DNA from: Verrucomicrobiota bacterium | Lineage (GTDB): Bacteria; Verrucomicrobiota; Verrucomicrobiia; Opitutales; Opitutaceae | Direction of reading: 5' to 3' | Assembly: GCA_014584295.1 (NCBI GenBank) | Contig: JACTNC010000058.1 | Coordinates: 148,669-212,668 of the forward strand | Length of the DNA: 64,000 nucleotides | Shown: positions 25,888-52,340 of the stretch, in pieces | Numbering within the stretch: the first letter of the stretch is position 1 | Layout: the number at the start of each line of letters is the position of its first letter | Notes under the pieces: model-generated | The model's database searches: none | Seen by the model: the letters and a program-made list of their open reading frames with translations, nothing else | What the model was told of the DNA's origin: nothing | Program-made: the position numbers and the translations under genes

Positions 25888-25902
25888 CGGCAGGTTTTGC
25901 CG
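25888..25902. promoter_or_regulatory. palindromic upstream element, flgF
   Basis: CGGCAGGTTTTGCCG. Its centre is 83 bp upstream of the -24 GG of the flgF promoter. Confidence 0.55.
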
Positions 25903-25964
25903 GGGGCAACCCAATGGCAGGCGACATGCGCGGATTGGCACATAGTATCAATCTTCTCTCACCG

Positions 25965-26130
25965 GGAGGGGCACGCTTCGTCGTGACCTGTATTGGATCG
26001 ACGCGTAGGGGGTGCTTCGAGCTCCGACTTTGATTGCAGCGGACCAATCGATCTCGAATCGGATTTCGATCCTTGGGACCTGGAACGTGCCGCTACTTTT
26101 CGATCCGGGCACGACGAAGCGTGCCCCTCC
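25965..26130. repeat. 166-bp MITE/REPIN-like element B
   Basis: Terminal inverted units at 25965-25988 and 26107-26130. The structured interior (..GACCAATCGATCTCGAATCGGATTTCGATCC..GGGACCTGGAACGTGCC..) is shared with element C. Confidence 0.85.
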
Positions 26131-26198
26131 AGGTCGCGATCAGAACCAACCACCCATCCTCAAACCCGGGTATACTTCGATCCCGTCCTGCCAATCGG

Positions 26199-26453
26199 TC
26201 AGCCTGCGGCTGGATAGAGGCACTCCACTTCGATCTTTTCACCGCAGGTGCACGTGATGAGCAGGCGCACCACCTTGTCCCCTTGCTTGATGCACTCGAT
26301 ATTGGGACCGTGCTTGTGGTCGGACCCGGATGACTTCAAGCCGGGCTGCGAGGCGAGAGAAGGTATTCCGGCAAGGCCGGTATCGGTTCCCTCTACAGTT
26401 GGGCGAAGCGCGGGCGTGCCGCTCGAAGGTCTTCCGCTGAGAAAGGGTTTCAT
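26199..26453 (-). CDS. hypothetical 84-aa protein translationally coupled to motB
   Basis: ATG at 26451-26453 overlaps the motB TGA (26450-26452) as ATGA. Cys-containing C-terminus IECIKQGDKVVRLLITCTCGEKIEVEC. No family recognised. Confidence 0.45.
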   Translation of the reverse strand: MKPFLSGRPSSGTPALRPTVEGTDTGLAGIPSLASQPGLKSSGSDHKHGPNIECIKQGDKVVRLLITCTCGEKIEVECLYPAAG

Positions 26454-27232
26454 GGAGTGAGAGTCGCTACGGGCTGCGCTTGCGGGCGGTTTTCACGTTT
26501 CAACACGGAAAGGCTGATCGTGACACGCTGGTTTGTTTCAGATTCCGGCGGCTCCAGAGGCATCGGCCGGGTGTCTGAAAACCCGGTTACCCGCGCTATC
26601 AATCCCGGGTCAACCGCGTAATAGGTCAGGCTGCGCCGCGCGGCGTTTGCCCGGTCCGCCGACAGTTCCCACGCCGTGTAATCCGGCTTCTTGAGTTCGA
26701 GCCCCTTGCGCGTGTGCCCTTCAATCACCACGGAAAATTTGTGCCGGTCGATCATCCACGCGAGGTTCTGCATGATGAACCGGCCCCACTCCGTGAACTC
26801 GGCGGTATTCTCGACGAAGAGCGGTTTGCGCGCACGATCGAAAAGCGAGATGCGCAGCCCGTCACTTGTCACCTGGATGTCAATGGGCTTGTCCTTCAAA
26901 TCCTGATCCATGTGGAGCAGCCGATAGAAGTCCTTGGCGAGTGAGTTGAGAAACTGGAGATCGACCGTGCGCGGGTCTGTCTGAGGTTCGCCACCCTTGG
27001 TGGCATCATCCGTTTTCCCCGAACTCGATTCGGACTTTGTCGCTGTCTTGCCGTCGAGATTGAGGACACCTGCGCTCGCAGTGAGCGGCGACTTGAACGG
27101 CTGCTGGAAATAGCGGGAGGTGGCCACAAGCACCTCCTTGTCCTGGGAGCAGATCCACAGCACCATAAACAAGGCCATCATCGCGGTGACGAAGTCCGCA
27201 TAGGCCACTTTCCATGCACCTCCTTTTGCCAT
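26450..27232 (-). CDS. motB: flagellar motor stator protein MotB (OmpA-like)
   Basis: N-terminus GAWKVAYADFVTAMMALFMVLW (plug/TM with conserved Asp) and an OmpA-like C-terminus VIEGHTR...SADRANAARRSL. Confidence 0.85.
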   Translation of the reverse strand: MAKGGAWKVAYADFVTAMMALFMVLWICSQDKEVLVATSRYFQQPFKSPLTASAGVLNLDGKTATKSESSSGKTDDATKGGEPQTDPRTVDLQFLNSLAKDFYRLLHMDQDLKDKPIDIQVTSDGLRISLFDRARKPLFVENTAEFTEWGRFIMQNLAWMIDRHKFSVVIEGHTRKGLELKKPDYTAWELSADRANAARRSLTYYAVDPGLIARVTGFSDTRPMPLEPPESETNQRVTISLSVLKRENRPQAQPVATLTP

Positions 27233-27258
27233 GATCGTATGGGTGATAGGCCTGCCAA

Positions 27259-28122
27259 CTACCGGCCTGCAGGCATTCCCTTGAGTGTGGTTTCCATTTC
27301 CTCGCCGCCAGGCTGGACAGAGCTGTCAAGCGAACGCCGGGCGATCTCGACCGCGGTGAGCGGCGCCAGCCCCTTCGCAAAACTTGAGACGGCCACAAGA
27401 ATGCAGCGCAGGTACTGACCGTCGCTCTGATTCATGAACCGGATGCGGTTCGAGAGCGGCAGCACAAAACCATATGCCACAAAAATTCCTAACAGCGTGC
27501 CAGTGAGCGCAGCGGCAACCTTTTCACCCACGGCCTCGGGTCCGTCGGCAATCGCGCTCATCGTGTTGATGATGCCCAGCACCGCTGCGACAATTCCGAT
27601 CGCGGGGAGGGAGTCGCCGACCATCTGGAGTACGTGCACAGGATGATCGCTCTCCTCGGCCTTGGCGTTCATTTCCGCCGACATGAGCTCCTCGAGCTGG
27701 TCGGGTTTGATCTTACCGTCGATCACCGGCTTGATTCCATTGACCAGAAATTCCATGCGCTCCTTGTTTGCGGTGATGGAGGGATACTTTTTGAATATCG
27801 CACTTTGTGACGGATTCATCACGTGCTCCTCCAATGCAATGAGGCCGTTCCGGCGGCCAACCATGAAGATCTCGTAAAGCATCTTCAGAAGATCGAAGTA
27901 CTCCGTCTTGCCCACACCCTTACCGAAGGCGGCAAGTTTGATCTTGTGGATCATCTCCTTGATGACATTGGCCGGACTCGCAATCACAAGCACACCCATG
28001 CCAACCCCGAGAATCACAACGAACTCCGATACATGCAGCAGCACCAGCGGATTGCCGCCCGCAAGCATGAAACCGCCCAGTGTCGAGGCGACAACGATGA
28101 AACTGCCGATTAAAATGAGCAT
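27259..28122 (-). CDS. motA: flagellar motor stator protein MotA
   Basis: Four-TM MotA/TolQ/ExbB pattern, with C-terminal LPAIGIVAAVLGIINTM...ALTGTLLGIFVAYG. ATG at 28120-28122. Confidence 0.9.
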   Translation of the reverse strand: MLILIGSFIVVASTLGGFMLAGGNPLVLLHVSEFVVILGVGMGVLVIASPANVIKEMIHKIKLAAFGKGVGKTEYFDLLKMLYEIFMVGRRNGLIALEEHVMNPSQSAIFKKYPSITANKERMEFLVNGIKPVIDGKIKPDQLEELMSAEMNAKAEESDHPVHVLQMVGDSLPAIGIVAAVLGIINTMSAIADGPEAVGEKVAAALTGTLLGIFVAYGFVLPLSNRIRFMNQSDGQYLRCILVAVSSFAKGLAPLTAVEIARRSLDSSVQPGGEEMETTLKGMPAGR

Positions 28123-28136
28123 GTATCTGGGTGAGG

Positions 28137-28164
28137 TTAACGGCCCGATGGGGAGGACTCTTTA
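28137..28164 (-). promoter_or_regulatory. sigma28 (FliA)-type promoter upstream of motA
   Basis: The minus strand reads TAAA-GAGTCCTCCCCATCGG-GCCGTTAA (TAAA-N16-GCCGTTAA against the consensus TAAA-N15-GCCGATAA). The -10 ends 14 nt before the motA ATG (28122). Confidence 0.6.
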
Positions 28165-28373
28165 GTGAGGCATGGGAATCACCCCTCGAAACGCGGATTT
28201 CGTTCCCTCGGAAGAAGGCAAAAAAAGTCCTCAAGTTTTCGGAGTATCGTTCCCAAACACCCCAGGACATTCCCCAACTCCGGCAAGCCCCGCAACCAAG
28301 GCTACCGCATCAATCGCAGACCAAAGGCCATGCAGGCGCCTTCCTTCCGCGGGATCCCATCGGATCCACGCGC

Positions 28374-29162
28374 TCACCTGTCGCGCACGCGCTTCAGATA
28401 TGCACGCAGCCCGAGGACGGTCTGCGCGTGAATCTGGCAGATTCTCGATTCCGTGAGATTGAACACCGCGGCAATTTCAGCGAGGCGCATGTTCTGGTGA
28501 TAGTACATCGCGATGATCTTCTTCGGAATCTCTGGAAGCTCGGCAATCCGCTGCGCCATGAGCTGCATCAACTCCTCCTTCTCCATGCGATCACGGACCG
28601 AGACATCGCTCTCGTCGGCAATCAGCTCATGAAGCGATGTGCCATCACTGTCCTCGTTCTCAGTCGTCTGATCAATCGCCACAAAGCACACCGGACGGGC
28701 CTCCTCCATCCACTTGGCATATTCCTTCGGAGTGAGTCCCAGATGCTCGCGAACCTCCTCCTCACTCGCGGCGCGTCCGAGCTTCTGCTCAAGTTCGTTG
28801 ATGGACTCCTTGAGTTTCTTTGCCTTCGCGCGTGCGCGTCGCGGACACCAGTCAAGCCGGCGAAGCTCATCCAGCACGGCGCCACGGATGCGTGTGCTGG
28901 CATAGCCGGCAAAAGTGTGACCCTGCTCGGGGTCATACTTGCGGACCGCGGCGATGAGCCCGGTGACACCGACGCTGTAGAGGTCGTCGACATCGACATG
29001 AGCGGGCAGGTTGATCTTGATGCGGTCGACGACGTTTCGAACGAGTGGGAGGTAACGTTCGATCAGGTCTTTTTCGTCAATGGAACCCGTGGAGGATTGA
29101 TAGGCCCGCCAGGCATTGGCGGCGGCTGCGGGTTGGGCATAGGCGAGTGCGGCGTGTTTCAT
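28374..29162 (-). CDS. fliA: flagellar sigma factor sigma28
   Basis: Sigma70-family regions 2-4: YLPLVRNVV.., DLYSVGVTGLIAAVRKYDPEQGHTFAGYASTRIRGAVLDELR, and region 4 HTH MRLAEIAAVFNLTESRICQIH. About 260 aa, as for FliA. Confidence 0.9.
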   Translation of the reverse strand: MKHAALAYAQPAAAANAWRAYQSSTGSIDEKDLIERYLPLVRNVVDRIKINLPAHVDVDDLYSVGVTGLIAAVRKYDPEQGHTFAGYASTRIRGAVLDELRRLDWCPRRARAKAKKLKESINELEQKLGRAASEEEVREHLGLTPKEYAKWMEEARPVCFVAIDQTTENEDSDGTSLHELIADESDVSVRDRMEKEELMQLMAQRIAELPEIPKKIIAMYYHQNMRLAEIAAVFNLTESRICQIHAQTVLGLRAYLKRVRDR

Positions 29163-29213
29163 TGGGGGCTGGATTTCAGGATGTGGATTGAGTGTGGAAA
29201 TTGAATGGACTCA

Positions 29214-29489
29214 TCAGCGCGTCTTCGCGGGCGCGGCCGCTGCGACGGGCACTGCCTTTTCCGCTGCTTGGGCCTCTGCCTCGGCGCTTGCGGCAATGCG
29301 GTTCAATGCGATGGCCTCGCCAAAAACCTTGATCACGACCGACCAGAACCAGCGGAAGAGCAGGGCGCCCGCCAGACAGCCGATTGCGGCATCGCGAAGG
29401 ACGAGATCAGGGGCGCGATCGGCAAGGAATCCCGCGGCGGCGGTGAGGGAGAATCCGGCGAACCCGCCGGTGAGAAAAATGAATTTCAT
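29214..29489 (-). CDS. hypothetical small membrane protein (91 aa) at the position usually occupied by flhG
   Basis: ATG start. Two hydrophobic helices (FIFLTGGFAGFSLTAAAGFL; IGCLAGALLFRWFWSVVI) and an Ala/Glu-rich tail. Lies 12 nt after flhF. Confidence 0.5.
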   Translation of the reverse strand: MKFIFLTGGFAGFSLTAAAGFLADRAPDLVLRDAAIGCLAGALLFRWFWSVVIKVFGEAIALNRIAASAEAEAQAAEKAVPVAAAAPAKTR

Positions 29490-29501
29490 GATGTGCGTGA
29501 A

Positions 29502-30623
29502 TCAGGATCCGGGTAGTGTCTTGCGAAGGACGGCATTGATCGCGTCCGTCTCGATATCGCCCGTCAGGCTCGGCCCGGTTGCGAGAAACAGGGGCGTCAC
29601 GTCGCCATCGACGAGGAAGTCGAGGAGTCTTCCCCAATGCCCAAGTTCGTCGAGATGCGTGAAGACGAGATGCGTCGCACCCGCGGAGCGGCCCGCATTG
29701 TACGCAGCGCGCAGGCTGGCGAGATCGTGCAGCGCGTTCAGGACGAGCACTCTTCCATCGATGCGTTCGGTATCCAGAAAGCGAACGATGCTGGCATTGG
29801 CCGCGGCTTGCAGCGAAAGAGCCGGAAGATCCACGAGAACGAAGTCCTCTGCCGAGGCATCCTCGATCCTACGCACGCCGGGTTCTCCTGGTATGTAGTG
29901 TTCCAGCGTCAGGCCGACCGCCTCACAAAAAACTGAAAGTCCTTCGGTCAGATTGGGTCGGTCAAACTCTGCCTTGATCACCCTGCCCTTGCGTCCACGA
30001 ACGAAAACGGACTGGGAAAGCCATTTGGAAAGCGCGGTGGTTCGACCCGAGCCCGCAGTGCCCATGAAGGCCGCGCGCAACGGGAACGCACGTGCTGCCC
30101 TCGAAGCGGATCCCGATCGCAACGCCTGCCCAAAGTCGGCAAGTGCACGATAGAGCGGAGCATCCGCACCAAGACTCGGCAGGGTCTGGAATCGCGAGAC
30201 AAGCGCCTCGGAGAAGCCAGAGCGCCTAAGCAGATCCGGGAGCCGCGGAGCGGATTCCGCCACACGCGCCGGCGTCTCGGAATTCAATCGCTCACGAACG
30301 GGTTGTTCGTGAGCACCACGCTCCGCCGTCGCTCCAGCTTCAAGCGTCCCCGGAACCGGTGCATTCTCGACGGAGCGTCCGGAAATCGCGACCGTCTCCT
30401 CGGCTTCTCCGGAATCGAGCTGTGCAATCACCTCCAGGCGCGGACGCCCAAAAAGGCCGGAGAGCCCCTGACCCGGAAGCTGCCGCACGGAAAGAACCTT
30501 TGCTTTCTCTCCCAGTTGCGTGCGAATCGCCTGAACCGCCTCTTCCGCAGACCGCACGACGAGCTTGTAGATCGCATTGGCCGGGGAACGATTTTCAGCG
30601 GTGGCGAAAGCGGAGGGGGACAT
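29502..30623 (-). CDS. flhF: flagellar biosynthesis protein FlhF (SRP-type GTPase fold, degenerate motifs)
   Basis: N-terminus YKLVVRSAEEAVQAIRTQLGEKAKVLSV and a C-terminal NG-like domain, located after flhA. The G boxes read GTAGSGRTT, VLVDLPALS and FTHLDEL instead of GxxGxGKT, DTAG and TKLDE. Confidence 0.75.
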   Translation of the reverse strand: MSPSAFATAENRSPANAIYKLVVRSAEEAVQAIRTQLGEKAKVLSVRQLPGQGLSGLFGRPRLEVIAQLDSGEAEETVAISGRSVENAPVPGTLEAGATAERGAHEQPVRERLNSETPARVAESAPRLPDLLRRSGFSEALVSRFQTLPSLGADAPLYRALADFGQALRSGSASRAARAFPLRAAFMGTAGSGRTTALSKWLSQSVFVRGRKGRVIKAEFDRPNLTEGLSVFCEAVGLTLEHYIPGEPGVRRIEDASAEDFVLVDLPALSLQAAANASIVRFLDTERIDGRVLVLNALHDLASLRAAYNAGRSAGATHLVFTHLDELGHWGRLLDFLVDGDVTPLFLATGPSLTGDIETDAINAVLRKTLPGS

Positions 30624-30637
30624 TCGGCATCGCCTGA

Positions 30638-30653
30638 TGCTAGGCTCGTGCCA
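30638..30653 (-). promoter_or_regulatory. sigma54-type promoter upstream of flhF
   Basis: The minus strand reads TGGCACGAGCCTAGCA. The -12 C (30639) is 16 nt from the flhF ATG (30623). Confidence 0.6.
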
Positions 30654-30759
30654 ACGAAATCATGTGTATCGTATAATACTGTTTATTCGTGAGTTAAACA
30701 ATTTTATCTAGGGCTCATTACCTAGATACGCCGGTCTGAGATGGCACCTGATTGTCCAG

Positions 30760-30774
30760 CGGCAGAAATTGCCG
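30760..30774. promoter_or_regulatory. palindromic upstream element, flhF
   Basis: CGGCAGAAATTGCCG. Its centre is 115 bp upstream of the -24 GG of the flhF promoter. Confidence 0.55.
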
Positions 30775-30925
30775 GAAAACATTGCCTGATACCCATTATC
30801 GGCCGAATCCGCAGCGGACTTCACTCCAATCCTATGAAGGTCCATCTGCAGATTGGAGTATGGACGCAGATTTCAGAGACAATCCACTCAGTCCGAGCAG
30901 GGTGGATCACGATCCTCCGTCACCG

Positions 30926-31092
30926 GGAGGGGCCCGCTTCGTCGTGACCGGATTGGTATCGAAATGTGGCTGGAGCTTCCAGCTCCCGATCTTGATCCGA
31001 GCAGACCAATCGATCTCAAATCGGATTTCGATCCACGGGACCTGGAAGGTCCCGCTACCAGCCAAACCGGTCACGACGATGCGTGACCCTCC
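30926..31092. repeat. 167-bp MITE/REPIN-like element C
   Basis: Terminal units at 30926-30949 (GGAGGGGCCCGCTTCGTCGTGACC) and 31069-31092. The interior has hairpins GGAGCTTCCAGCTCC and GGGACCTGGAAGGTCCC and aligns with element B. Confidence 0.85.
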
Positions 31093-31130
31093 AATGACAC
31101 GAGCAGATTCAAGCGCGAGAGACCAAATCC

Positions 31131-33344: not shown

Positions 33345-33380
33345 GGGAAATTCGACGAGTGAGAAATTCAGCGATCAGAT

Positions 33381-34505
33381 TCAGGCGACGCCTCGCAGCG
33401 CCTGACTTTCAGCAGCGGTTCGGCGCATCTTCAGTTCGTGGAAGTACAGGCGGTGGGTCTTGTACACGAACGCAAGGATGCCTGCGACCGCCTGATAGAG
33501 CTCGTTGGGAATCGGCTGCCCCACGATCCCCATGCTGAAGAGCATACGCGCCACCGGCCGGTTTTCGACCATGGGCACCCCGTGTTCGGCCGCGAGAGCC
33601 TTGATGCGCATCGCAAACCGGTTGTCGCCCTTCGCGAGCACAATGGGAGCATTGTCCTTGCCGCGCTCATACTTCAGCGCGACCGCATAGTGGGTGGGAT
33701 TCGTGACCACGACGTCCGCCGTCGCGACGGCGCTGAGCATCTGTTTCTGCATCAGGCGTCGTCCCATGCGACGCATGGCACTCTTGGTGTTTGCGTCGCC
33801 TTCCGACTGCTTGTGCTCATCCTTCACCTCTTGCCGCGTCATGCGCATCTCCTTGAAGGTCTTGAATCGCTCGTATGAATAGCTGAGTGCAGCGATGATA
33901 CCTAGGGCAACGAGCAGTTTGCCGAAGAACTCAACGGTGGCTCGATGTAAGAAGCCCCCGAGGTAGGCGCTTTCGACGGGAGCGCTGAACAACGGATCCG
34001 CGAGCAGGTTCTTAGCTGCCATCCAGAGGACGAAGCCAATGCCCAGCATCTTCAGAAAATCGATCAGGCCATGCACCGCCGTGGTTTTTGAAAACAGGCG
34101 CTGAAGCCCCTGCACCACATCAAGCCGCTCCATCTTGAAGCCAAGAGCCTTGGGCGAAATCCGAAAACCGGTCTGGAAACCACCGGCGAGCAAGGTGGCC
34201 GTTGTCGTTGCCAGCAACACGGGCAGGAGCACGCGTGCAATGACGAGCCCGACTTCGTCCATCTGCCCGGGGAGCGTCGCGATTTCCAAACGCGCCGCGC
34301 CAAGGTCCCGCCAGAACAAGGTCGCGAGTGCTGCGACCTCATGCATGCCACCGGAAAGGCTCATCGAAAAAATCCCCAATGCCGCGGCCAGCATCGCAAC
34401 GACCTGAAGCTCGGGCGTCTTGGCGAACTGGCCGCGATCCATCGCGTCCGCTTTCCGCTTGTCTGTCGGCAGCTCGGTTTTTGAGTCGTCGTCGTGTTCA
34501 GCCAT
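33381..34505 (-). CDS. flhB: flagellar export switch protein FlhB
   Basis: N-terminus MAEHDDDSKTELPTDKRKADAMDRGQFAK and an NPTH autocleavage motif in VVVTNPTHYAVAL. Confidence 0.95.
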   Translation of the reverse strand: MAEHDDDSKTELPTDKRKADAMDRGQFAKTPELQVVAMLAAALGIFSMSLSGGMHEVAALATLFWRDLGAARLEIATLPGQMDEVGLVIARVLLPVLLATTTATLLAGGFQTGFRISPKALGFKMERLDVVQGLQRLFSKTTAVHGLIDFLKMLGIGFVLWMAAKNLLADPLFSAPVESAYLGGFLHRATVEFFGKLLVALGIIAALSYSYERFKTFKEMRMTRQEVKDEHKQSEGDANTKSAMRRMGRRLMQKQMLSAVATADVVVTNPTHYAVALKYERGKDNAPIVLAKGDNRFAMRIKALAAEHGVPMVENRPVARMLFSMGIVGQPIPNELYQAVAGILAFVYKTHRLYFHELKMRRTAAESQALRGVA

Positions 34506-34522
34506 GGCCTCCCGTCGGGGAA

Positions 34523-34538
34523 TGCAAGGACAGTGCCA
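34523..34538 (-). promoter_or_regulatory. sigma54-type promoter upstream of flhB
   Basis: The minus strand reads TGGCACTGTCCTTGCA (perfect consensus). The -12 C (34524) is 19 nt from the flhB ATG (34505). Confidence 0.7.
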
Positions 34539-34611
34539 CGATGCACGGGTGTTATGTGTCTATTATGCTATCAACATCTTACGAGATTCTCATCGGATAC
34601 AAAACGGCACC

Positions 34612-34626
34612 CGGCAAAATCTGCAG
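34612..34626. promoter_or_regulatory. palindromic upstream element, flhB
   Basis: CGGCAAAATCTGCAG (one arm mismatch). Its centre is 82 bp upstream of the -24 GG of the flhB promoter. Confidence 0.45.
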
Positions 34627-34658
34627 TATCCGCTATCGGGCGTTCAGGAAATGCAGCC

Positions 34659-34752
34659 GGAGCTTCCAGCTCCCGCTCTCGTCCCCGTCAGACCGGCCGA
34701 TTTCAAACCGAATTTCGATCGTCGCACAGCCAATTGACATTGTTCCCAACCT
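34659..34752. repeat. partial copy of the B/C-type element interior
   Basis: Starts with GGAGCTTCCAGCTCCCG, identical to element C, followed by a diverged ..CCGATTTCAAACCGAATTTCGATCG.. Lacks a left terminal unit. Confidence 0.5.
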
Positions 34753-35009
34753 GGACGGGCAAGCATCGTCGTGCCCGGGATCGCTCCGCGCATTCCAACG
34801 CCAGCAAATTCGCCAATTCATCGGAATCGTGTTCTCTTGTAACAATGCCCCGGAGTAAAATCCTGGACACATCCCAGACCAAACCGGGCACGACGAAGCG
34901 TGCCCCTCCAAATTCACAGGAAGATCAATCTTCTCCTCAGCAAGTGCGCAGATTCCCAATCCATCTGATCCGCAGATTTCGCGGACGGACGCAGATTCTG
35001 GCATCGATC
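34753..35009. repeat. left about 257-bp direct repeat (second-type REPIN of 157 bp plus about 100-bp tail) flanking the TA cassette
   Basis: Units at 34753-34776 (degenerate GGACGGGCAAGCATCGTCGTGCCC) and 34886-34909. The tail AAATTCACAGGAAGATCAATCTTCTCCTCAGCA..GGCATCGATC is nearly identical to 36297-36395. Confidence 0.8.
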
Positions 35010-35024
35010 AGAGTCAAACTGTGG

Positions 35025-35191: not shown

Positions 35192-35242
35192 CAAGTCAAT
35201 CGATAAGACCTGACGCTACGGATGGCCCTCCAATCCCGCGCT

Positions 35243-35668
35243 TTATTCGATCCTATCCAAAACCAGCCGAAAACGGCGCGAACCATGGCGCCGGTAAGTC
35301 CGGAAGCCACGCTCATCCAGCGTCAGAATTTTATCCAGGCCGGTTTCCTCAGCAAGCAACACCAATGTGGCATCGGCAAAGTCCATCGGCGTGTCTGTAT
35401 ATTTACCCATCAGTCGGGCGGCCGCGCGAAGTTGCTCCGGGGCAAAGCAATCCCGAATGACAATCTGGGCGTCATCGAGAAACTCCACCAATACCTCTGC
35501 GCCCCTCGCCTGCCCGCCGATGAAATGCATGGCTTCGGTCACCACAGCTCCCGTGGTCAGCAAGGTTCCGGAAAATGCGGACAAGACCCTGGCACAACGT
35601 TCATGCTGAGGGTCGCCCCGGTTAAGGGCCGCCACCAAGGGGCCGGTATCGAGCAACCAAGAAGTCAC
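35243..35668 (-). CDS. vapC: PIN-domain toxin (VapC-like)
   Basis: PIN acidic residues in WLLDTGPL, VVTEAMHF, MDFADATL and ILTLDERGF. GTG at 35666-35668 overlaps the antitoxin TGA (35665-35667) as GTGA. An alternative ATG at 35704 would overlap by 40 nt. Confidence 0.75.
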   Translation of the reverse strand: MTSWLLDTGPLVAALNRGDPQHERCARVLSAFSGTLLTTGAVVTEAMHFIGGQARGAEVLVEFLDDAQIVIRDCFAPEQLRAAARLMGKYTDTPMDFADATLVLLAEETGLDKILTLDERGFRTYRRHGSRRFRLVLDRIE

Positions 35669-35925
35669 GACCGGGTGTTCATCCGCAGCAGGTGCTCCCG
35701 CCATGGATCCTTGCCTTGGGGCACCGGTGAAAAATCAAGGCGACCCAAGTGGCGTCCGGCCCGCTCGCCCACTGTACCCGGTCGCAGCAGCTGCCCGGCA
35801 ATCAACTCACGCACCAGTTCGGATTCGGTCCGTCCCGAGGCGGCTGCACGCGCACGCAACGCCTTCCGATGGGCTGCCGGCAAACGAATGGTGAGTGTTT
35901 CGGACATGTCGGAAACGTTATCCAT
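35665..35925 (-). CDS. vapB: ribbon-helix-helix (CopG/RHH) antitoxin (VapB-like)
   Basis: RHH pattern ETLTIRLPAAHRKALRARAAASGRTESELVRELI. Candidate ATG starts at 35925 or 35907; the track ORF extends to 36051. Confidence 0.65.
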   Translation of the reverse strand: MDNVSDMSETLTIRLPAAHRKALRARAAASGRTESELVRELIAGQLLRPGTVGERAGRHLGRLDFSPVPQGKDPWREHLLRMNTRS

Positions 35926-36134
35926 CGTAAGACACTCCGCAAGACATAATGGTTCTCGCAACAGCTCCCGGGGTATTTGCCCAAGACATGCCCTGCCAAG
36001 AGAAGTCCGATCGATCTCTCCTTCGCGTCTTCTCGGCTTCGCGTGAGTCATTCACGCTCATGCTTGGCGATGGCAAGATGGGTTCACATGAAGTCACGAA
36101 GACACGAAGGGCTGATGAAATACCGGACAGCTGA

Positions 36135-38703: not shown

Positions 38704-39158
38704 GAGGATTTCTGGGAGGACTTCAGAGGGGCGAGCATCTGAATCTGTCCTGGGGTGACGCCGATCAGGAACTTGCTGCCTTCATAGTCGGCCACGACAA
38801 GGTACTGTCGGTTTCCGAGCGAACGCGTTTCCTCAATCTGGATTTTTCGATCACCCTTCGCGCTGCCAAGCGGCCCGGCGGCGCGGCGTTTGACCAGAAA
38901 CCATGCGCCTGCGCTTCCCAGCAGCAGAGCTGCAATCAGCACGCCCCAGGAACGGCCGCTTCGACGGTCAGCAGGAGGCGGCGTGGCCGGATCCGCCGAC
39001 GAACCTTGTGGAAATATCACCGTCTCAGGTGCACGGGCAGGGACCGGAGCATCCGGTGCCTCAGCCCTCATCAGCTGCGCCGTCTCCAAAACGGCGCAGC
39101 CGACTACCACTATCAGCCAGCGGGTGACGCTGGTAAAGGGATGGGAGGAAAACCTCAT
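38700..39158 (-). CDS. fliO: flagellar biosynthesis protein FliO
   Basis: Single-TM protein (GVLIAALLLGSAGAWFLV) with a FliO C-terminal pattern IQIEETRSLGNRQYLVVADYEGSKFLIGVTPGQIQML. Upstream of fliP. Confidence 0.65.
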   Translation of the reverse strand: MRFSSHPFTSVTRWLIVVVGCAVLETAQLMRAEAPDAPVPARAPETVIFPQGSSADPATPPPADRRSGRSWGVLIAALLLGSAGAWFLVKRRAAGPLGSAKGDRKIQIEETRSLGNRQYLVVADYEGSKFLIGVTPGQIQMLAPLKSSQKSS

Positions 39159-39173: not shown

Positions 39174-39189
39174 AGCGAGATGCGTGCCA
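39174..39189 (-). promoter_or_regulatory. sigma54-type promoter upstream of fliO
   Basis: The minus strand reads TGGCACGCATCTCGCT (GG-N10-GC spacing kept). The -12 C (39175) is 17 nt from the fliO ATG (39158). Confidence 0.55.
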
Positions 39190-39296
39190 GTGCTATCTTT
39201 GTAGTCATACTTGGTTGACGTTCAAAATGTTACGATATTCTATCACTCACCGTGAGCATGCCCCTCCCTACCCCGGGCAGCGCCCCCAAGGGATTG

Positions 39297-39311
39297 CGGC
39301 AGGATTTGCCG
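39297..39311. promoter_or_regulatory. palindromic upstream element, fliO
   Basis: CGGCAGGATTTGCCG. Its centre is 116 bp upstream of the -24 GG of the fliO promoter. Confidence 0.55.
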
Positions 39312-43197: not shown

Positions 43198-43211
43198 GGT
43201 GGGATGGTATG

Positions 43212-45092
43212 TCAGGCGAAGGCTTGGAGCCGGGATGAGTTTTCGGACGCCTGAGTAGTCTGCGAAGGTGCGACAGGTGCTCCGACTGAGGAGATGCCGC
43301 GGCGGCTGCGCCGAATCACATCAGGGTTGCCGCGTTGGGCCTGCTGAGAGGATTGCCGGGAGGAGTCTCCTCCCATCGAGTAGCCCTGTGCGAAGGCTCC
43401 CTGCTCACTGTTTGACGACGTGTTCGAACTTGAGAACACAGGTTCGGCAAACCGGTAGGGTTTCTGATCGGAAAGGGAGAAGACGTGTTTTTCCCACGCC
43501 GTGCTCAGCGCATTGCGCAGTTCCGGCGAATCGGCATGAAACGTCGCGCGAATTTCGCCATCGCGATAGGACACGCTTACGGCAACACCGACATCATCGA
43601 GCTTCAGCTTGAGATTCACGCCAGAGCGCTCGGTTGCCCACAACACATCCGCGGCATCGGTGATCTGGCGGATCGCTTCCACAGCAGCAACCGCTCCTTT
43701 GCTGTTTGGTACCGCTGCCTCCGAGGCTGCTCGACCCAGAGACCCTTGTTCGGCGGAATGACCGACACCCGATGCGATAGGCTCGCCCTGCAGCGCAGCA
43801 TAACGGGGATGACGGCTATCATGAGGCATGGGAGTCACGAGGGCTGCAGTTTCAGTGCCAACCCGAGAACCGTGATCCATAAGTGACTCATCTAACGAAT
43901 CTAATGATTCCTTTTTATTGATGCCCGTGCTGAGGTTGGCGTCTGTTTTCCGCGTCGATTGGATCTGTGCCGCGCTGCCGGCATATTTTTCCGACGTGAC
44001 CGTTGAGACCCGAATTCCGGCGGCCAGGGAACGGTCCCCAACGACCGCGGCAGGCAGAATTTTGCCGGGTAGGTCTTCGCCTGATTTCAGGGTGTTCCCC
44101 TCAGGAAGTGGGCTTTCGCCCGCGATGTCGGGCTTACCGCCTGAAGCACCTGACAAGGATTTCGAAAGGACATCCGCTGGGTTGGTTTCAGAACTGGCTG
44201 AGGCGGGAATCGTGGAATTTTCGGTGGTTGCAAAGTTGCCCGCGCCCTCACTGCCGGCAAGAAGGGTCATACGAGTTGCAGACATTTGCGGCGCGGGGGC
44301 GGCAACCGAGTCGGCACTAGAGAAGGAGTTCGTTGGAAACGACCCGACGCCTAGACTCCTCCCTAAATGCAGTGCTGAGAGAGATTCGATGCGGTCAACT
44401 ATTCCGGCTCCGGTCGTTTGCGGCATTTCACCCGGCAATTCCGAGTCAGAAAAACTGAGCCATCGCGAACCGAGCGCCTGGCTTGCGAGCACAGGCGAAG
44501 TTTTCATCTCCGACAATAAACGGGGCTCTTTTGCCCGCGCGTCGCACAACGTTAAGTTTAAAGCTGAAGCTGCGTTCGTCTCTTCGGGTTCAACAGGAAA
44601 ATTGGCGGGATTTGCAGTCGCGACCATACTTTTCACCAACGCAAGCGGGGCAGAGACCGTCAGTGAGCCGTCATCCTTTAGCCGCGAATCGGACACGCTT
44701 TGGCCGTCCTCGCCATCAGTTTCTTCGACGCTCTCGTTGTCGTCTGAAACGACTTCGTCCGACACCGCATCCGTGACCGAACCATCGGCATCATCCGGTA
44801 CAGCCTCGGCAGGAGCAATTCCGGGCGTCAGCCCGCATGTCTTTGCCATTGCCAGGTGCATGGGAATGGGTGTGCCTACCGGGGTCATCGCCAAGCCCGC
44901 TACGACAGCCGCATCGATTGCCGGGCTGCCCACCGGTTTGTCGTTACCGACATCAGCGGTTTTCTCAAAAATGTCCGCAAAGGCGCCTGCACAGGCGTCA
45001 CCCTCCATCACATCATCAGGCAGACCCGAATCGGATGCAGGGGAATTCTTAGTTGTCGGTTCGAAGGGAAGGACGGAAGTGGATGGTGACAT
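43212..45092 (-). CDS. fliK: flagellar hook-length control protein FliK
   Basis: Long low-complexity Ser/Ala/Pro-rich protein with a C-terminal Flg_hook-like segment VNLKLKLDDVGVAVSVSYRDGEIRATFHADSPELRNAL. Upstream of flgD. Confidence 0.7.
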   Translation of the reverse strand: MSPSTSVLPFEPTTKNSPASDSGLPDDVMEGDACAGAFADIFEKTADVGNDKPVGSPAIDAAVVAGLAMTPVGTPIPMHLAMAKTCGLTPGIAPAEAVPDDADGSVTDAVSDEVVSDDNESVEETDGEDGQSVSDSRLKDDGSLTVSAPLALVKSMVATANPANFPVEPEETNAASALNLTLCDARAKEPRLLSEMKTSPVLASQALGSRWLSFSDSELPGEMPQTTGAGIVDRIESLSALHLGRSLGVGSFPTNSFSSADSVAAPAPQMSATRMTLLAGSEGAGNFATTENSTIPASASSETNPADVLSKSLSGASGGKPDIAGESPLPEGNTLKSGEDLPGKILPAAVVGDRSLAAGIRVSTVTSEKYAGSAAQIQSTRKTDANLSTGINKKESLDSLDESLMDHGSRVGTETAALVTPMPHDSRHPRYAALQGEPIASGVGHSAEQGSLGRAASEAAVPNSKGAVAAVEAIRQITDAADVLWATERSGVNLKLKLDDVGVAVSVSYRDGEIRATFHADSPELRNALSTAWEKHVFSLSDQKPYRFAEPVFSSSNTSSNSEQGAFAQGYSMGGDSSRQSSQQAQRGNPDVIRRSRRGISSVGAPVAPSQTTQASENSSRLQAFA

Positions 45093-45161
45093 GGGGGCGA
45101 TCCATCCATGGCCGCAAAACGCACCGTCCTTGGCGCGCCAGAGTTGAAATGAAAGGGAGAG

Positions 45162-46255: not shown

Positions 46256-46266
46256 GGCGGTAACAT

Positions 46267-47589: not shown

Positions 47590-47599
47590 GATTCAGTGG

Positions 47600-48190
47600 T
47601 CAACCCGTGGCGAGGAACTCCCGACCAAGGGTATCGAGCTTGGATGCAAGCCGCGCATCCGTCAGACCGAAACGGCTGCGCACCTGGCAGTCTCCGGGGG
47701 CCAGCGACGGCGTAGCCGTTATCCGCAATCCCGGATAGCGGCTACTCCAGGCAGGGGAGATTTTTTCAAGGATAACGGCATCATGTGGGCTCACCAGGAG
47801 TTCGAGATTCTCTGTCTCTGGGTATAGCTGGCTGAGCGCCTCGGAGCAGATCTTTTCAATCGCCTCCGCAGGAGGTTCATAGCCCGCAAGCAGGCGTCGC
47901 ACAATTTCCATGACGAGATTAGGAAGGGCTGCGTGCACCTGTCGGACGATCGCGGCATCGGACTCGGCAAGTCTGCTGAATACGCCATCCTGAAGCGCTT
48001 GGACCTCGGCGCGAAATTCAACGAGTTGCTGACTCGCGAACGCCCGGGCAGAGTCCGCGCCCTCCTGAAAGCCGGCGACGCGGGCAGCGGCGACCTCGCT
48101 CTCGCTGAACTGCCGCGCAGACAACCCGGGAATCGTGGCCGATGCGAGCGGTCGATCGAAGGCGATGAGTTTGCGGAAAGGGATGGCCAT
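47600..48190 (-). CDS. fliH: flagellar assembly protein FliH
   Basis: 196-aa protein between fliG and fliI, with a FliH-like central/C-terminal region (..GFQEGADSARAF..). Confidence 0.75.
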   Translation of the reverse strand: MAIPFRKLIAFDRPLASATIPGLSARQFSESEVAAARVAGFQEGADSARAFASQQLVEFRAEVQALQDGVFSRLAESDAAIVRQVHAALPNLVMEIVRRLLAGYEPPAEAIEKICSEALSQLYPETENLELLVSPHDAVILEKISPAWSSRYPGLRITATPSLAPGDCQVRSRFGLTDARLASKLDTLGREFLATG

Positions 48191-48210
48191 GGTTGCAGGG
48201 GTGTGGTGTC

Positions 48211-49266
48211 TCAGGCGACGACTGCGGCCTCTGCTCCATCGAGGGAAATCGCACCCTCTTCCTCCAGCCGTCGAACGACCTGGATGATCGCTTCCTGCGC
48301 GATCTCCACGTCCTTCAGGCGCACGGCTCCGAGCATCGAAATCTCGTCGCGCAGGCTTTCCGCCGCGCGTTTCGAAATGGATCCATAGATCCTTTCCTTG
48401 AGCGACTCGCTCGCCGATTTCATCGAGGTCGCCAGATTCTGCGAATCGACTTCGCGCAGTACGCGCTGGAGATCCGCGGCCTGGAGGCGGCTGAGGTCCT
48501 CGAAGCTGAACATCTTTTTCCGGATCGCTGAACCGAGCGCACTGTTGCGCTCCTCGACACGGGCGAGCAGCCCTTTCGAAGTTTCCTTGTCGATGCTGTT
48601 GAGCAGGTCCGCCACCGCACGCACACCGCCGCTGCGGTGGAATGTGGGACGTGCCTTCGTATCAAAATGCTTTCCGAGGCTGCGCACGATCTTGCCAACG
48701 AGGTCAAGTGAAGTGCTGTCGATCGTGCCGAGGCGTTCGACCACCTCCTCACGAATCTCGGGGCTGAGCAACATGAAGATCTCCTTCGATTTTTCAGCAT
48801 TCAGGTACGAGAGCACAAAGGAGATGGTCTGCGGCTGCTCGTTCTTGATGAGGTTGAAAATCTGCCGACCTTCCATTTCAGCGATGTCCTGGATCACGTC
48901 CAGAGATGTGCCGCCAGGTGCGCAGCCCACGCGGCTTAGGATCGAGTTCGCCTTGTAGTCGCCCCGTACACGCTCGATGGCCTGGCGGGCATAATCAAGC
49001 CCACCGAGGGAGGACTCCATGCTCTCACCAATTATCGGCGCAAATTCGTCGAGCACCTGCCTGCGAAGGGCTTCTGGCACCATGGGAAACTGGCTCATCT
49101 CCCTGCAGACCTGCTCAATCTCGGCATCATCAAACATCTTCAGCACCTGCGCGGCAGAATCCGTGCCGACAACAATGAGGAACACCGCCAGCTTCTGAAT
49201 TCGGGTCAGCTTGCCGTAGTCGATTGCGGCGGGTGCGGATGATTCTGTCGCGGTGCTTGTTGCCAT
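48211..49266 (-). CDS. fliG: flagellar motor switch protein FliG
   Basis: LTRIQKLAVFLIVVG, the ..EVLREVDSQNLATSMK.. pattern and a C-terminal torque-helix region. Confidence 0.95.
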   Translation of the reverse strand: MATSTATESSAPAAIDYGKLTRIQKLAVFLIVVGTDSAAQVLKMFDDAEIEQVCREMSQFPMVPEALRRQVLDEFAPIIGESMESSLGGLDYARQAIERVRGDYKANSILSRVGCAPGGTSLDVIQDIAEMEGRQIFNLIKNEQPQTISFVLSYLNAEKSKEIFMLLSPEIREEVVERLGTIDSTSLDLVGKIVRSLGKHFDTKARPTFHRSGGVRAVADLLNSIDKETSKGLLARVEERNSALGSAIRKKMFSFEDLSRLQAADLQRVLREVDSQNLATSMKSASESLKERIYGSISKRAAESLRDEISMLGAVRLKDVEIAQEAIIQVVRRLEEEGAISLDGAEAAVVA

Positions 49267-49289
49267 GAGAAAAGCGTCCGATTTCGCGT

Positions 49290-50885
49290 CTAGGATTTCT
49301 TCACCGCAACCCAGTCACGCAGCGCAGTGCCAATGTTCGCGGGCTTCTGCTTGATGAGTTCGTTGAGCAGTTCAGGCGTCAGCGCGCCGCCACCCTGTAT
49401 CTGTCGCTGGGCATCGCGCGGATCCACGGTGAGCAATTCGACGGGGACGGATTCCGGCTTCTGGCGTCCCAGCATGCGCCAGAAGATCACGAGTACACCT
49501 ATTGCGACCGCAACGGCCACATACCGGCTGGCACCATCAATCCACCCCTGGACGCGCGTTGCCGATTCGATGCGCTCGATGCCGGCCGAAACGGTTTCCG
49601 ACTGGAAAGGAATTTCCTGCAGGGTCACGACGGAGTCGATCGACTGGCCGGCCGCGGGCTTCACCCCAAGGGCGTTGAGCACGATTTGACGGAGCGCCTG
49701 AAGCTCCTCTGGCGTGCGAGGCTGCGGGGTTGGTGCCGCGGATTCAGCACCCGGCGCGGCCGGAGCAGCAACCATGCGCTGAGCGACAAACACCGATGCG
49801 GTTATGTTCTTCAATGAACCCGGCTGGCGGGTGATGTTGGTCACGGACCGGTTGATCTCGTAAGTGGTTGTGCGATTCTTGCGATTGGACTCCGTCACGT
49901 TTGTCGGATGAGCCGCCTCGGCGGAAGGTATGCCCGGCTTGTCAGGCGTGTTCGCGGTGACACCAACCACGCCGACGTTGTGCCGTTCTGTGGAGTTGGA
50001 AATGTCATCAGTGGTTGTCTGCGTGCGCACCACCTGTCCGTCCGGGTCAAATTTCTCCTGCATCATGGTTGTGGATTCGGTATCGATCTCAGCCGACACT
50101 CGGACCACTGCGTTGCCGCTTCCGAGCACGGGGATCAGCATGCTCTCCACCTTTTTCGCCAGGTAGTCCTCGATCTGCTGGCGATAGCGCATCTGTGAGG
50201 AAGCGCTGCTGAGAAGCGGGTCCTGGCGCAAGTCCTCTGAAAGCACTCTGCCCTTCTGATCCACGACCGCCACCTGGTCTGGATTGAGTCCCTGGACTGC
50301 ATTGGCCACGAGGTGTCGTATGCTGTTCACCGCCTCCACTTCCAGTCGAGAGCCAGCAAGCTCCACAAAAACCGATGCGGTGGGCTTCACTCCCTGATCG
50401 GTCAGAAGCAGCCGGTTCTCCGGCTGCACGATCATGACACGCGCACTGCGTACGCCATCAAGCTGGCTGATGGTGCGTCCGAGTTCGCCCTGGAGAGCAC
50501 GCAAATAATTCGTGCGCTGTACAAAATCAGAAAGGCCGAACTGTCCCTTGTCGAAGATCTCGAATCCAACGCCATCACCGGTCGGCACTCCCTTGCCCGC
50601 GAGGTCCATGCGCAGGCGGTGCACCTGATCGGCGGGCACGTAGATCGTGCTGCCACCATTCGTCACCCGATGCGGGACGTTCTGGGACTGAAGCGTGCTC
50701 ACAATCTGGGCGGCGTCCTTTTCTGAAAGCCGTCCGTACAGGAGCTGGTAATCCGGCTGTCGCGACCAGATCACCAGGCCGATCAAGCCAGCGACGAGAG
50801 CTGCTGTGGCAATGGAGAGCGTGACGCGCTGATTGAGGCCAAGTTGTTTCCAGAGTCCGAGGAGGGAGGTGGCAAAGGATTTCAT
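49290..50885 (-). CDS. fliF: flagellar MS-ring protein FliF
   Basis: N-terminal TM, then YQLLYGRLSEKDAAQIVSTLQSQNVPHRV and LPxGxGVGFEIFD-type motifs, and a C-terminal TM. Confidence 0.95.
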   Translation of the reverse strand: MKSFATSLLGLWKQLGLNQRVTLSIATAALVAGLIGLVIWSRQPDYQLLYGRLSEKDAAQIVSTLQSQNVPHRVTNGGSTIYVPADQVHRLRMDLAGKGVPTGDGVGFEIFDKGQFGLSDFVQRTNYLRALQGELGRTISQLDGVRSARVMIVQPENRLLLTDQGVKPTASVFVELAGSRLEVEAVNSIRHLVANAVQGLNPDQVAVVDQKGRVLSEDLRQDPLLSSASSQMRYRQQIEDYLAKKVESMLIPVLGSGNAVVRVSAEIDTESTTMMQEKFDPDGQVVRTQTTTDDISNSTERHNVGVVGVTANTPDKPGIPSAEAAHPTNVTESNRKNRTTTYEINRSVTNITRQPGSLKNITASVFVAQRMVAAPAAPGAESAAPTPQPRTPEELQALRQIVLNALGVKPAAGQSIDSVVTLQEIPFQSETVSAGIERIESATRVQGWIDGASRYVAVAVAIGVLVIFWRMLGRQKPESVPVELLTVDPRDAQRQIQGGGALTPELLNELIKQKPANIGTALRDWVAVKKS

Positions 50886-50940
50886 GCGCCAGTCGCAGCG
50901 ATGGTTGGGAGAAGGATCAGGGTATGCGGCATGGGCTCAG

Positions 50941-51297
50941 CTATACAGGCATGCGCATCAGTTCCTGGTAGGAGTCGACCAGCTTGTTGCGCACCTCGAC
51001 CATCAATTGGAAGGCAACGCCGGCTTCCTGCATGGCGATGACACTCGTATGAAGCTGATCATTCTGACCCAGCAGAACCTGTCGCGTCAGCGCCTGCGCC
51101 TCGGCCTGCTTTCCGTCCACCGCTGCCACCATCTGCTCAAACACCGAACTGAAGCTCGCGGGTTTGGAGTCCGTCAACGGAATCGGTGTTCCGATCTTCG
51201 GCGCTGTCGGCGAAAACGGGCCTTCGACAGAGCTCGTGCCGGAAAGTCGCATGGGGAGGGATTGCTGAACACCGCCAATGGAACCAATGAGGGACAT
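50941..51297 (-). CDS. fliE: flagellar hook-basal body protein FliE
   Basis: C-terminus VIAMQEAGVAFQLMVEVRNKLVDSYQELMRM is typical of FliE. Confidence 0.85.
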   Translation of the reverse strand: MSLIGSIGGVQQSLPMRLSGTSSVEGPFSPTAPKIGTPIPLTDSKPASFSSVFEQMVAAVDGKQAEAQALTRQVLLGQNDQLHTSVIAMQEAGVAFQLMVEVRNKLVDSYQELMRMPV

Positions 51298-51330
51298 GAG
51301 AAATAGGAAGAGGGAAATGGGGTGCGGCGC

Positions 51331-51750
51331 CTATCGGCCGATTTCGAGTGCCTTCATGGCCATCTGCCGGGCGTTCTTCGCGACGGAGAGATTTGCCTCG
51401 TAGGCCCGCGTCGCCGTGATCAGATCAACCATTTCATAGGCAAGATTCACGTTGGGAAGCTGGACCATGCCGTCGGCGCCCGCATCGGGATGCTGAGGAT
51501 CGTAGACGCGCTGACCGGGTGACTTGTCGGTCGTGATTTCGCCGACCCTGACGGACTGAAGTGCCTCACCGGACATGCCCTGCTTGCGGAGGAGTTCGGT
51601 CTCAAACGACACCATTCTGCGCTGGTAGGGAGCTCCATCGGAGCCGCGCGTTGTCTGAGCATTTGCAATGTTCTGCGCAACCACGTCGAGGCGTGTGCGC
51701 TGCGCATTGAGGGCGCTGGAGGTTACATCAATTGCACCGATGAGATTCAT
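51331..51750 (-). CDS. flgC: flagellar proximal rod protein FlgC
   Basis: SALNAQRTRLDVVAQNIANAQTT and the C-terminus LPNVNLAYEMVDLITATRAYEANLSV. Confidence 0.9.
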   Translation of the reverse strand: MNLIGAIDVTSSALNAQRTRLDVVAQNIANAQTTRGSDGAPYQRRMVSFETELLRKQGMSGEALQSVRVGEITTDKSPGQRVYDPQHPDAGADGMVQLPNVNLAYEMVDLITATRAYEANLSVAKNARQMAMKALEIGR

Positions 51751-51806
51751 GTTTGGAGCGCAGAAAACGGTTCAGCAGGTCAAAATTTCCTGGGGTGGAA
51801 ACCTCA

Positions 51807-52187
51807 TCACACCGCACGTCCCGTGATCGCGAGGCGAAGCTGCTTTATGTTCTTGCTGATGAGATCCGTCAGAAATTCGTATTCGACCGTATTGCGGTTC
51901 ATTTCGAGAAGCTCCTTCTCCATTTCGACCGAGTTGCCATCGGGACGCACCGCGCGCGCCTTCGCATCTTCAGCGAGCACCGGTGTTACCCCTGAAAAGT
52001 CACTGCTTCCACCGGCCATGCGCGACTTGAGCTGTGCGGCAAAATCAGGCGAAAGGTCCAGCCGCCTGAAACCAGGCGTTTCCGCATTGGCGATGTTCGA
52101 CGCAATGGCGCTCTGTCTCAGGACCGACGCGTCTAGCAACTTGCGGGCGAGTTGGTAGTTGGCGGACTGAAAGATGGGATCGACCAT
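51807..52187 (-). CDS. flgB: flagellar proximal rod protein FlgB
   Basis: ATG at 52185-52187 gives MVDPIFQSANYQLARKLLDASVLRQSAIASNIANAETPGF, which aligns with FlgB N-termini. The 48 upstream codons of the track ORF cover the promoter. Confidence 0.85.
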   Translation of the reverse strand: MVDPIFQSANYQLARKLLDASVLRQSAIASNIANAETPGFRRLDLSPDFAAQLKSRMAGGSSDFSGVTPVLAEDAKARAVRPDGNSVEMEKELLEMNRNTVEYEFLTDLISKNIKQLRLAITGRAV

Positions 52188-52201
52188 GACCTCACCACCA
52201 T

Positions 52202-52217
52202 TGCAATGCCTGTGCCA
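52202..52217 (-). promoter_or_regulatory. sigma54-type promoter upstream of flgB
   Basis: The minus strand reads TGGCACAGGCATTGCA, a perfect TGGCAC-N5-TTGCA. The -12 C (52203) is 16 nt from the A of the flgB ATG (52187). Confidence 0.7.
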
Positions 52218-52325
52218 TGCCCATGATGAATGATTCAAGATCCTGTAAACCAGCAGGATAAAATCCATTGATCCTCCGCCAGCATCAATCTCCACCGTAC
52301 AAGCCGTGCCCTCGGCGACTTCCAA

Positions 52326-52340
52326 CGGCAAATATTGCCG
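52326..52340. promoter_or_regulatory. palindromic upstream element (candidate sigma54-activator binding site), flgB
   Basis: CGGCAAATATTGCCG. Its centre is 117 bp upstream of the -24 GG of the flgB promoter. Confidence 0.55.

Follow-up and report, generated by a model that had tools for sequence, protein, structure and literature searches.

A stretch of 64,000 nucleotides from a member of the Opitutaceae (Verrucomicrobiota; contig JACTNC010000058.1, positions 148,669 to 212,668), here called the window, carries a flagellar gene cluster in which a short palindrome, CGGCA-N5-TGCCG, recurs upstream of sigma-54 promoters. The genes were named with NCBIfam and Pfam, and the names agree with those in an earlier reading made from the letters alone (the sequence-only reading). 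They fall into the groups flgB-flgC-fliE-fliF-fliG-fliH-fliI-fliJ-orf209-fliK, flgD-flgE-fliL-fliM-fliN, fliO-fliP-fliQ-fliR, flhB-flhA, flhF with fliA, motA and motB, and flgF-flgG-flgA-flgH-flgI-flgJ-flgN-flgK-flgL with fliW and flagellin. Operon extents, and the placement of fliA under the flhF promoter, are predicted from gene spacing. Six copies of the palindrome are found in the cluster. We refer to them as ftr-type sites, after the Caulobacter elements compared below.

All six sites are located 82.5-127.5 bp upstream of promoters resembling TGGCAC-N5-TTGC, measured from the center of the palindrome to the middle of the -24 GG. The promoters are on the minus strand. The palindromes are listed without a strand, and their sequences are given on the gene strand. 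The site of the flgB-fliK operon, CGGCAATATTTGCCG (52326-52340), is located in the divergent flgB/cheR intergenic region, 117.5 bp upstream of the promoter TGGCACAGGCATTGC (52203-52217), and the flgB ATG is at 52187. At fliO-fliP-fliQ-fliR, the site CGGCAAATCCTGCCG (39297-39311) is 116.5 bp upstream of TGGCACGCATCTCGC (39175-39189), with the ATG at 39158. The flhB-flhA site (34612-34626) reads CTGCAGATTTTGCCG, also written CGGCAAAATCTGCAG, and has one mismatch. It is 82.5 bp upstream of TGGCACTGTCCTTGC (34524-34538), and the ATG follows at 34505. The flhF(-fliA) site, CGGCAATTTCTGCCG (30760-30774), is 115.5 bp from TGGCACGAGCCTAGC (30639-30653). The site heading the flgF-flgG-flgA-flgH-flgI operon and the genes beyond it, CGGCAAAACCTGCCG (25888-25902), is 83.5 bp from TGGCACTCCTGCTGC (25799-25813). 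The sixth, CGGAAAAATATGCCG (43979-43993), has one mismatch and is located inside a fliK-like open reading frame (ORF), 127.5 bp upstream of TGGCACTGAAACTGC (43846-43860).

A promoter was accepted as sigma-54 type if GG and GC doublets 10 bp apart stood in a YTGGCACG-N4-TTGCW context with a gene start downstream. All six promoters have these features, and each shows 0-1 mismatch to TGGCAC-N5-TTGC. The 10 core positions of the palindrome (CGGCA/TGCCG) are perfect at four sites and carry one mismatch at the other two. Dinucleotide-preserving shuffles of the 64-kb window (n=100) gave 0.15 expected exact palindromes, compared to four observed, and none of the 100 shuffles reached four. With up to one mismatch allowed, there are 17 matches vs 5.5 expected, among them the flhB and fliK copies. 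The sequence-only reading had described near-identical 15-bp palindromes in five intergenic regions, 117, 116, 82, 115 and 83 bp upstream of the -24 GG. Our measurements reproduce these distances, and four of those copies are exact, with the single mismatch at flhB. Its view that the five were all the sigma-54 promoters was an undercount, as the window contains at least six such promoters and the sixth site-promoter pair is inside fliK.

The host ORF of this sixth pair (43212-45092, minus strand, 626 codons) is identified as fliK-like by its C-terminal third, which gives a sub-threshold match to Flg_hook (FliK; E 0.015). An in-frame ATG at 43829 is located 31 nt past the T of TGGCAC. Downstream of the promoter are the FliK C-terminal region, flgD, flgE, fliL, fliM and fliN. 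A palindrome-like CGGCAAAATTCTGCC with a 6-nt spacer is also found at 44061-44076 (minus strand), about 210 bp upstream of the internal promoter.

To place these sites in a family-wide context, we used two sets of related loci. The genome set contains 80 Verrucomicrobiota loci, mostly from Opitutaceae, fetched with FlhA at 54-85% identity. The metagenome set contains 80 contigs fetched with FliF at 63-83% identity. Genes of the window were placed on all 160 loci by tblastn. The window and the related loci together comprise 2.29 Mb, in which sigma-54-like sites were scored at >=9/11. Exact palindromes are strongly associated with these promoters: 68 of 84 (81%) fall into the zone 40-135 bp upstream of sigma-54-like sites, which accounts for 2.4% of the sequence. 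The spacers of most of the other 16 are GC-rich, and we take these to be chance matches. This comparison supports the proposal of the sequence-only reading that the palindrome is an enhancer, or upstream activating sequence (UAS). That the repeated palindrome represents a real, conserved upstream site for a putative sigma-54 activator before flagellar operons is well supported.

Conservation can be followed gene by gene. At flgB, 46 of 57 loci have a sigma-54 promoter, and 40 of the 46 carry a palindrome with up to one mismatch, at 114.5-118.5 or 104.5-106.5 bp. At flhB, 48 of 67 loci have a sigma-54-like site, 29 of them with such a palindrome. Two relatives, L001 and L003, have the same flhB variant at the same distance as the window, and in others the site is at 113.5-117.5 bp. 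For flgF the numbers are 40 of 42 loci and 25 of those 40, and the orthologous sites are found at 58-62, 80-84, 94, 103-105 or 114-118 bp. The loci contain 141 site-promoter pairs: 42 at flgB, 30 at flhB, 24 inside fliK, 23 at flgF, two at flhF, one each at fliO and flgD, and 18 others. Inspection of these 18 placed them mostly at positions equivalent to fliK or flhF/fliA, and revealed no new target or regulator gene. The sites mark the heads of operons. None with up to one mismatch was found before ten intra-operon genes (fliE, fliF, fliH, fliI, fliJ, fliL, motA, motB, flgA and flgH), and only one or two each before fliG, fliM, flgD, flgE and flgG. The few found at flgC arise because its 450-bp search region extends to the flgB promoter.

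The arrangement inside fliK is also conserved. A sigma-54-like site is found at the FliK C-terminal region in 19 of 20 and in 30 of 30 loci, accompanied by a palindrome with up to one mismatch in 8 and 16 of them, respectively. Nearly all the other fliK loci carry a conserved variant, xGGAAAAAWTTGCCG, and the orthologous copies in relatives are at 115.5 or 127.5 bp. In 40 of 45 related loci, the frame of the FliK C-terminal region can be read back without a stop as far as the preceding gene, indicating that the enhancer and promoter are intragenic. In 39 of 40 loci an ATG is located exactly 31 nt past the T of TGGCAC and in frame with this region. These features suggest that the FliK C-terminal region is expressed as a protein of its own, that flgD-fliN are served by an internal promoter, or both.

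We next describe the shape and spacing of the site, based on 137 non-identical regions, which also served for the counts of downstream elements and start codons. The logo of the site is CGGCAAAWWTTGCCG, and its flanks carry no information. The five spacer positions were not used in selecting the sites. They are nonetheless biased and symmetric, with A at 87%, A at 67%, W (A/T), T at 51% and T at 72%. The distances to the promoter are grouped into classes at 58-63, 80-83, 92-94, 103-106, 113-118 and 124-127 bp, with almost nothing between them. A Rayleigh scan of the distances has its maximum at a period of about 11.2 bp. The two classes about 33 bp apart noted in the sequence-only reading are thus part of a ladder of classes about 11 bp apart. 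At flgF the class varies by lineage (59, 81-83, 94, 104 or 115 bp). The same gene with different classes across lineages indicates that evolution altered the spacing only by whole helical turns. It amounts to a natural 'indel experiment', in which the face-of-helix constraint of enhancer-dependent transcription is unusually clear, and the IHF-like element described below keeps its place while the distance of the site varies.

In some relatives a single promoter is preceded by tandem palindromes, with distances such as 83.5 and 58.5 bp, or 94.5 and 58.5 bp. These include L001 (12140/12165), L003 (17671/17696), L004 (19028/19064), L010, L012, L014 and L054. The sites in the window are single.

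Inverted repeats can also act as RNA or DNA hairpins, which might terminate or attenuate transcription of the upstream gene, or might belong to dispersed repeats of the repetitive extragenic palindromic (REP) type that play no part in regulation. The arms can pair, forming stems of 5-8 bp with -6 to -12 kcal/mol when flanks are included, and several sites come after the stop codon of a same-strand gene. However, the site keeps a fixed position to the downstream promoter and not to the stop codon before it. At flgB there is no upstream gene on the same strand, and the fliK copy is within a coding region. There is no U tract, none of the sites was called terminator-like, and fold z-scores are mostly unremarkable. 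The inner positions of the arms show no covariation and are invariant, and variants altered in one arm only (GGAAA...TGCCG) are conserved. Given these observations and the shortness of the stems, we rejected a terminator or hairpin role and regard this explanation as barely credible.

A second conserved element is located between the site and the promoter. Counted from the T of TGGCAC, TAA-N4-TTG begins at offset -43 in 49 of the 137 regions, whereas other offsets have it in 1.2 regions on average. The element is AT-rich, with 77% AT in the -50..-41 bin against a background of about 60-65% GC. TAA-N4-TTG corresponds to the core of the integration host factor (IHF) site, YAANNNNTTGATW. In the window, elements of this type are all on the minus strand. 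The AT-rich IHF-like element at flgB (52248-52267, TGGATTTTATCCTGCTGGTT) matches 4/6 of the core at offset -43, and the IHF-like element at fliO (39220-39239, AATATCGTAACATTTTGAAC) matches 6/6. The flhB element (34569-34588) contains TAAGATGTTGATA, a perfect reverse match to the IHF consensus WATCAANNNNTTR. At flhF, the AT-rich element AAATTGTTTAACTCACGAAT (30685-30704) is part of an interval (-75..-5) with 30% GC, in a genome of about 60% GC. The AT-rich IHF-like element at flgF is ATACTAGGAATGTTTTACAA (25842-25861). DNA bending by IHF at TAA-N4-TTG is a plausible function for these elements. From -150 to the promoter, no conserved motif was seen besides the palindrome and the IHF-like element.

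This last result bears on another explanation, that the palindrome is the operator of a conventional dimeric factor outside the AAA+ family, for example a repressor or anti-activator that would modulate the flagellar promoters without acting through the sigma-54 activator. A perfect 15-bp palindrome is typical of many dimeric helix-turn-helix regulators, and an operator of this kind would fit with the lack of a linked activator gene described below. However, sigma-54 promoters absolutely need an enhancer-binding protein (PMC4641369). If the palindrome is an operator, these promoters are left without a visible enhancer, the IHF-like element being the only other conserved feature. In addition, the remote and helically phased position, 60-127 bp away, fits a looping activator and not an operator that overlaps the promoter. 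We consider an operator very unlikely.

Start codons are located close to these promoters. In 95 of the 137 regions, the start codon is 28-33 nt (mode 31) past the T of TGGCAC. This predicts 5' leaders of about 2-7 nt, and thus near-leaderless sigma-54 transcripts. Purine-rich runs resembling Shine-Dalgarno sequences precede some of the ATGs despite the short predicted leaders.

Two sigma-28-like promoters were also seen on the minus strand. The first, TAAAGAGTCCTCCCCATCGGGCCGTTAA (28137-28164), is directly upstream of motA, and the second, TGAAG-N16-GCCGATAA (30796-30823), is upstream of the flhF enhancer. Together with fliA downstream of flhF, they suggest a cascade from sigma-54 to sigma-28.

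The core of the palindrome matches a known site. The FlbD site of C. crescentus is CCCGGCAxxxxxTGCCGGG (Rajeev et al., 2011; PMC3333781, citing Wu, Benson and Newton, 1995), and CGGCA-N5-TGCCG is identical to its core. A FlbD homologue in D. vulgaris, DVU1063, binds GGCAxxxxTGCC as determined by DNA-affinity-purified chip (DAP-chip), indicating that FlbD-type sites occur outside Alphaproteobacteria (PMC3333781). Its flagellar regulon comprises 12 operons, and several of its sites are 40-70 bp downstream of the promoter (Kazakov et al., 2015; PMC4641369). The GGCA...TGCC palindrome and the large flagellar regulon are thus shared with DVU1063. The sequence-only reading had considered both the regulator and its site undefined. 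The regulator was indeed not located in the window or the 160 loci, whereas the site can now be assigned, since its core is the published FlbD ftr consensus.

The layout around the site is also similar to that in Caulobacter, where sigma-54 flagellar promoters likewise have a dyad roughly 100 bp away. Work of Gober and Shapiro (1992) and of Mullin and Newton (1989/1993) reportedly places an IHF-type element between enhancer and promoter there, and the IHF-like element described above is, by its sequence, a candidate counterpart. The classical IHF-assisted sigma-54 layout has a UAS about 100-140 bp upstream, an IHF site between it and the promoter, and a face-of-helix requirement. NifA at nifH, NtrC at glnHp2 and XylR at Pu share this order of UAS, IHF bend site and -24/-12 promoter, together with the face-of-helix requirement. 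They differ from the sites described here in the sequence of the activator site, and a single dyad per promoter is the rule here, with tandem sites only in some relatives.

We regard the element as an FlbD/ftr-type UAS with an IHF-like element, a kind already known; it appears to be new in Verrucomicrobiota and to have broader target operons. Each palindrome (CGGCAAAWWTTGCCG) is, in our judgement, quite likely a UAS to which a sigma-54 enhancer-binding protein of FlbD/DVU1063-type specificity, encoded elsewhere in the genome, would bind as a dimer. FlbD orthologues are AAA+ activators of the NtrC family that combine an atypical receiver domain with an FlbD-type helix-turn-helix, and the recognition helix of FlbD-like proteins reads ...GISIRTLRNKLK....

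One further system was compared. In Azospirillum brasilense Sp7, plasmid p1 (L162) carries a gene for a sigma-54 activator (18376-19914) between fliN and flhA, which we take to be flbD from its synteny and its resemblance to the Caulobacter FlbD sequence. An ftr-like AGGCACATTTTGCCG (14495-14509) is located about 170 bp upstream of fliF there, with a weak sigma-54-like CGGCGCGGTTTTTGCA 86.5 bp downstream of it. This site and activator lend weak support to the FlbD link.

Several observations weigh against assigning the sites to an FlbD/DVU1063-type activator. Only the closest relatives, L001 and L003, also have the pairs at fliO and flhF. The Caulobacter site has an outer CCC/GGG that is not conserved here, and the DVU1063 motif is printed with a 4-nt instead of a 5-nt spacer. 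In Caulobacter, FlbD activates class III/IV flagellar promoters, those of rod, hook and flagellin genes, and represses class II promoters, and fliF, flhA and fliQR belong to the repressed class II (PMC4083442), whereas here the same site heads flhBA, fliOPQR and the flgB operon with fliF and fliG. Finally, no activator gene was detected in any of the 160 related loci by tblastn with an NtrC-family AAA+ consensus as the probe, which detects all sigma-54 activators with PDB entries at about 1e-80. The window gave the same result, as the sequence-only reading had stated: no sigma-54 AAA+ activator was found by Pfam on all large ORFs or with the tblastn probe. A six-frame search for GAFTGA had no match in the window or in the 80 flhA loci. 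The cognate activator would then be encoded elsewhere in the genome, unlinked to the flagellar cluster.

The position of the sites before early genes indicates that the regulatory logic differs from that in Caulobacter. A Caulobacter-type hierarchy was not apparent here, and none of the ftr-type sites was seen to overlap a promoter other than sigma-54. Downstream ftr elements are also used in Caulobacter, whereas every site identified in this analysis is upstream. The Caulobacter flbD gene is located in the fliF operon; the flagellar cluster here has no flbD, and the phylum is Verrucomicrobiota. The early-gene placement makes the same circuit as in Caulobacter less likely, but leaves the assignment to the same type of site intact.

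The same placement raises the question of whether an activator of another lineage, of the FleQ/FlrA type or a response regulator of the FlrC/FleR/FlgR type, acts at a genuine sigma-54 enhancer and has converged on, or retained, GGCA-N5-TGCC specificity. Sites at the head of flhBA, fliOPQR, flhF and the flgB operon imply the role of FleQ/FlrA in the polar flagellates Pseudomonas and Vibrio, one sigma-54 activator for early genes (export apparatus, MS ring and flhF), and not that of Caulobacter FlbD. The lack of an activator gene in the window and the 160 loci fits this explanation, and histidine kinases and response regulators flank the flagellar cluster. However, the site of FleQ/FlrA/DVU2894-type activators, GTCA-N6-TGAC/TGGC (PMC4641369), is unrelated to the palindrome. 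GTCA-N6-TGAC has four matches in the window vs 1.07 expected by chance, but is absent from all six promoter-upstream regions. The FlrA/FleQ-like DVU2894, which stands above DVU1063 in D. vulgaris, thus has no counterpart in the motifs of these regions. The only matching published motifs that we found are those of the FlbD family (PMC3333781). As long as the protein is not located, an activator from a different lineage has to be considered, but we think it unlikely.

Assuming that an FlbD-type activator recognizes the palindromes, transcription could be initiated as follows. The activator would bind about 60-127 bp upstream of -24, on the same face of the helix, with the allowed distances in steps of about 11 bp. 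The AT-rich IHF-like element, fixed about 35-45 bp upstream of -24, would bend the DNA, such that the activator oligomer contacts the sigma-54 holoenzyme. The promoter would then be opened through ATP hydrolysis by the activator. The site would head six units: flgB-fliK, the fliK-internal promoter to flgD-fliN, fliOPQR, flhBA, flhF(-fliA) and the unit starting with flgF. With the same site at six units, one activator would switch on the export-apparatus, MS/C-ring, rod and hook genes, and probably sigma-28.

A broader reading that joins these results is put forward only tentatively. In it, nearly all flagellar structural genes of Opitutaceae and related Verrucomicrobiota, the early ones among them, would be under one FlbD-type activator as the top-level switch, unlike the two-tier circuits in Caulobacter and Desulfovibrio. 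The fliK-embedded module, the near-leaderless mRNAs and an ancient FlbD-ftr code would be part of this system. If true, the conservation of the code in Alphaproteobacteria, Desulfobacterota and Verrucomicrobiota would point to an ancient activator-site pair.

The literature searched contained no account of flagellar gene control in Verrucomicrobiota, and none linking FlbD or sigma-54 flagellar control with Verrucomicrobia. The sites described here provide a regulon map for the phylum, composed of the 15-bp site itself, the six promoters that it accompanies in this genome, and its conserved copies before flgB, flhB and flgF and within fliK across the family. They also suggest that regulons in a distant phylum can be predicted with the FlbD/ftr code defined in Caulobacter. 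Of the by-products of the analysis, the most unusual are the promoter module within fliK and the very short leaders.

Several other features are found in the window. A PIN-domain (VapC-like) toxin gene (35243-35704, minus strand) and small ORFs (35665-36051 and 34633-35004) are located between fliR and the flhB enhancer. This insertion is absent from the relatives inspected. A low-GC island at 10000-16000 (47-50% vs about 60%) adjoins the flagellin gene and contains glycosyltransferases, a polysaccharide flippase-like gene and three ORFs without a Pfam match. It may be a horizontally acquired flagellin-glycosylation island. A csrA gene (about 17163-17420, minus strand) is located between fliW (17439-17867) and flagellin (16210-17085), an order that matches the FliW-CsrA-flagellin partner-switch arrangement known from Bacillus and Campylobacter.

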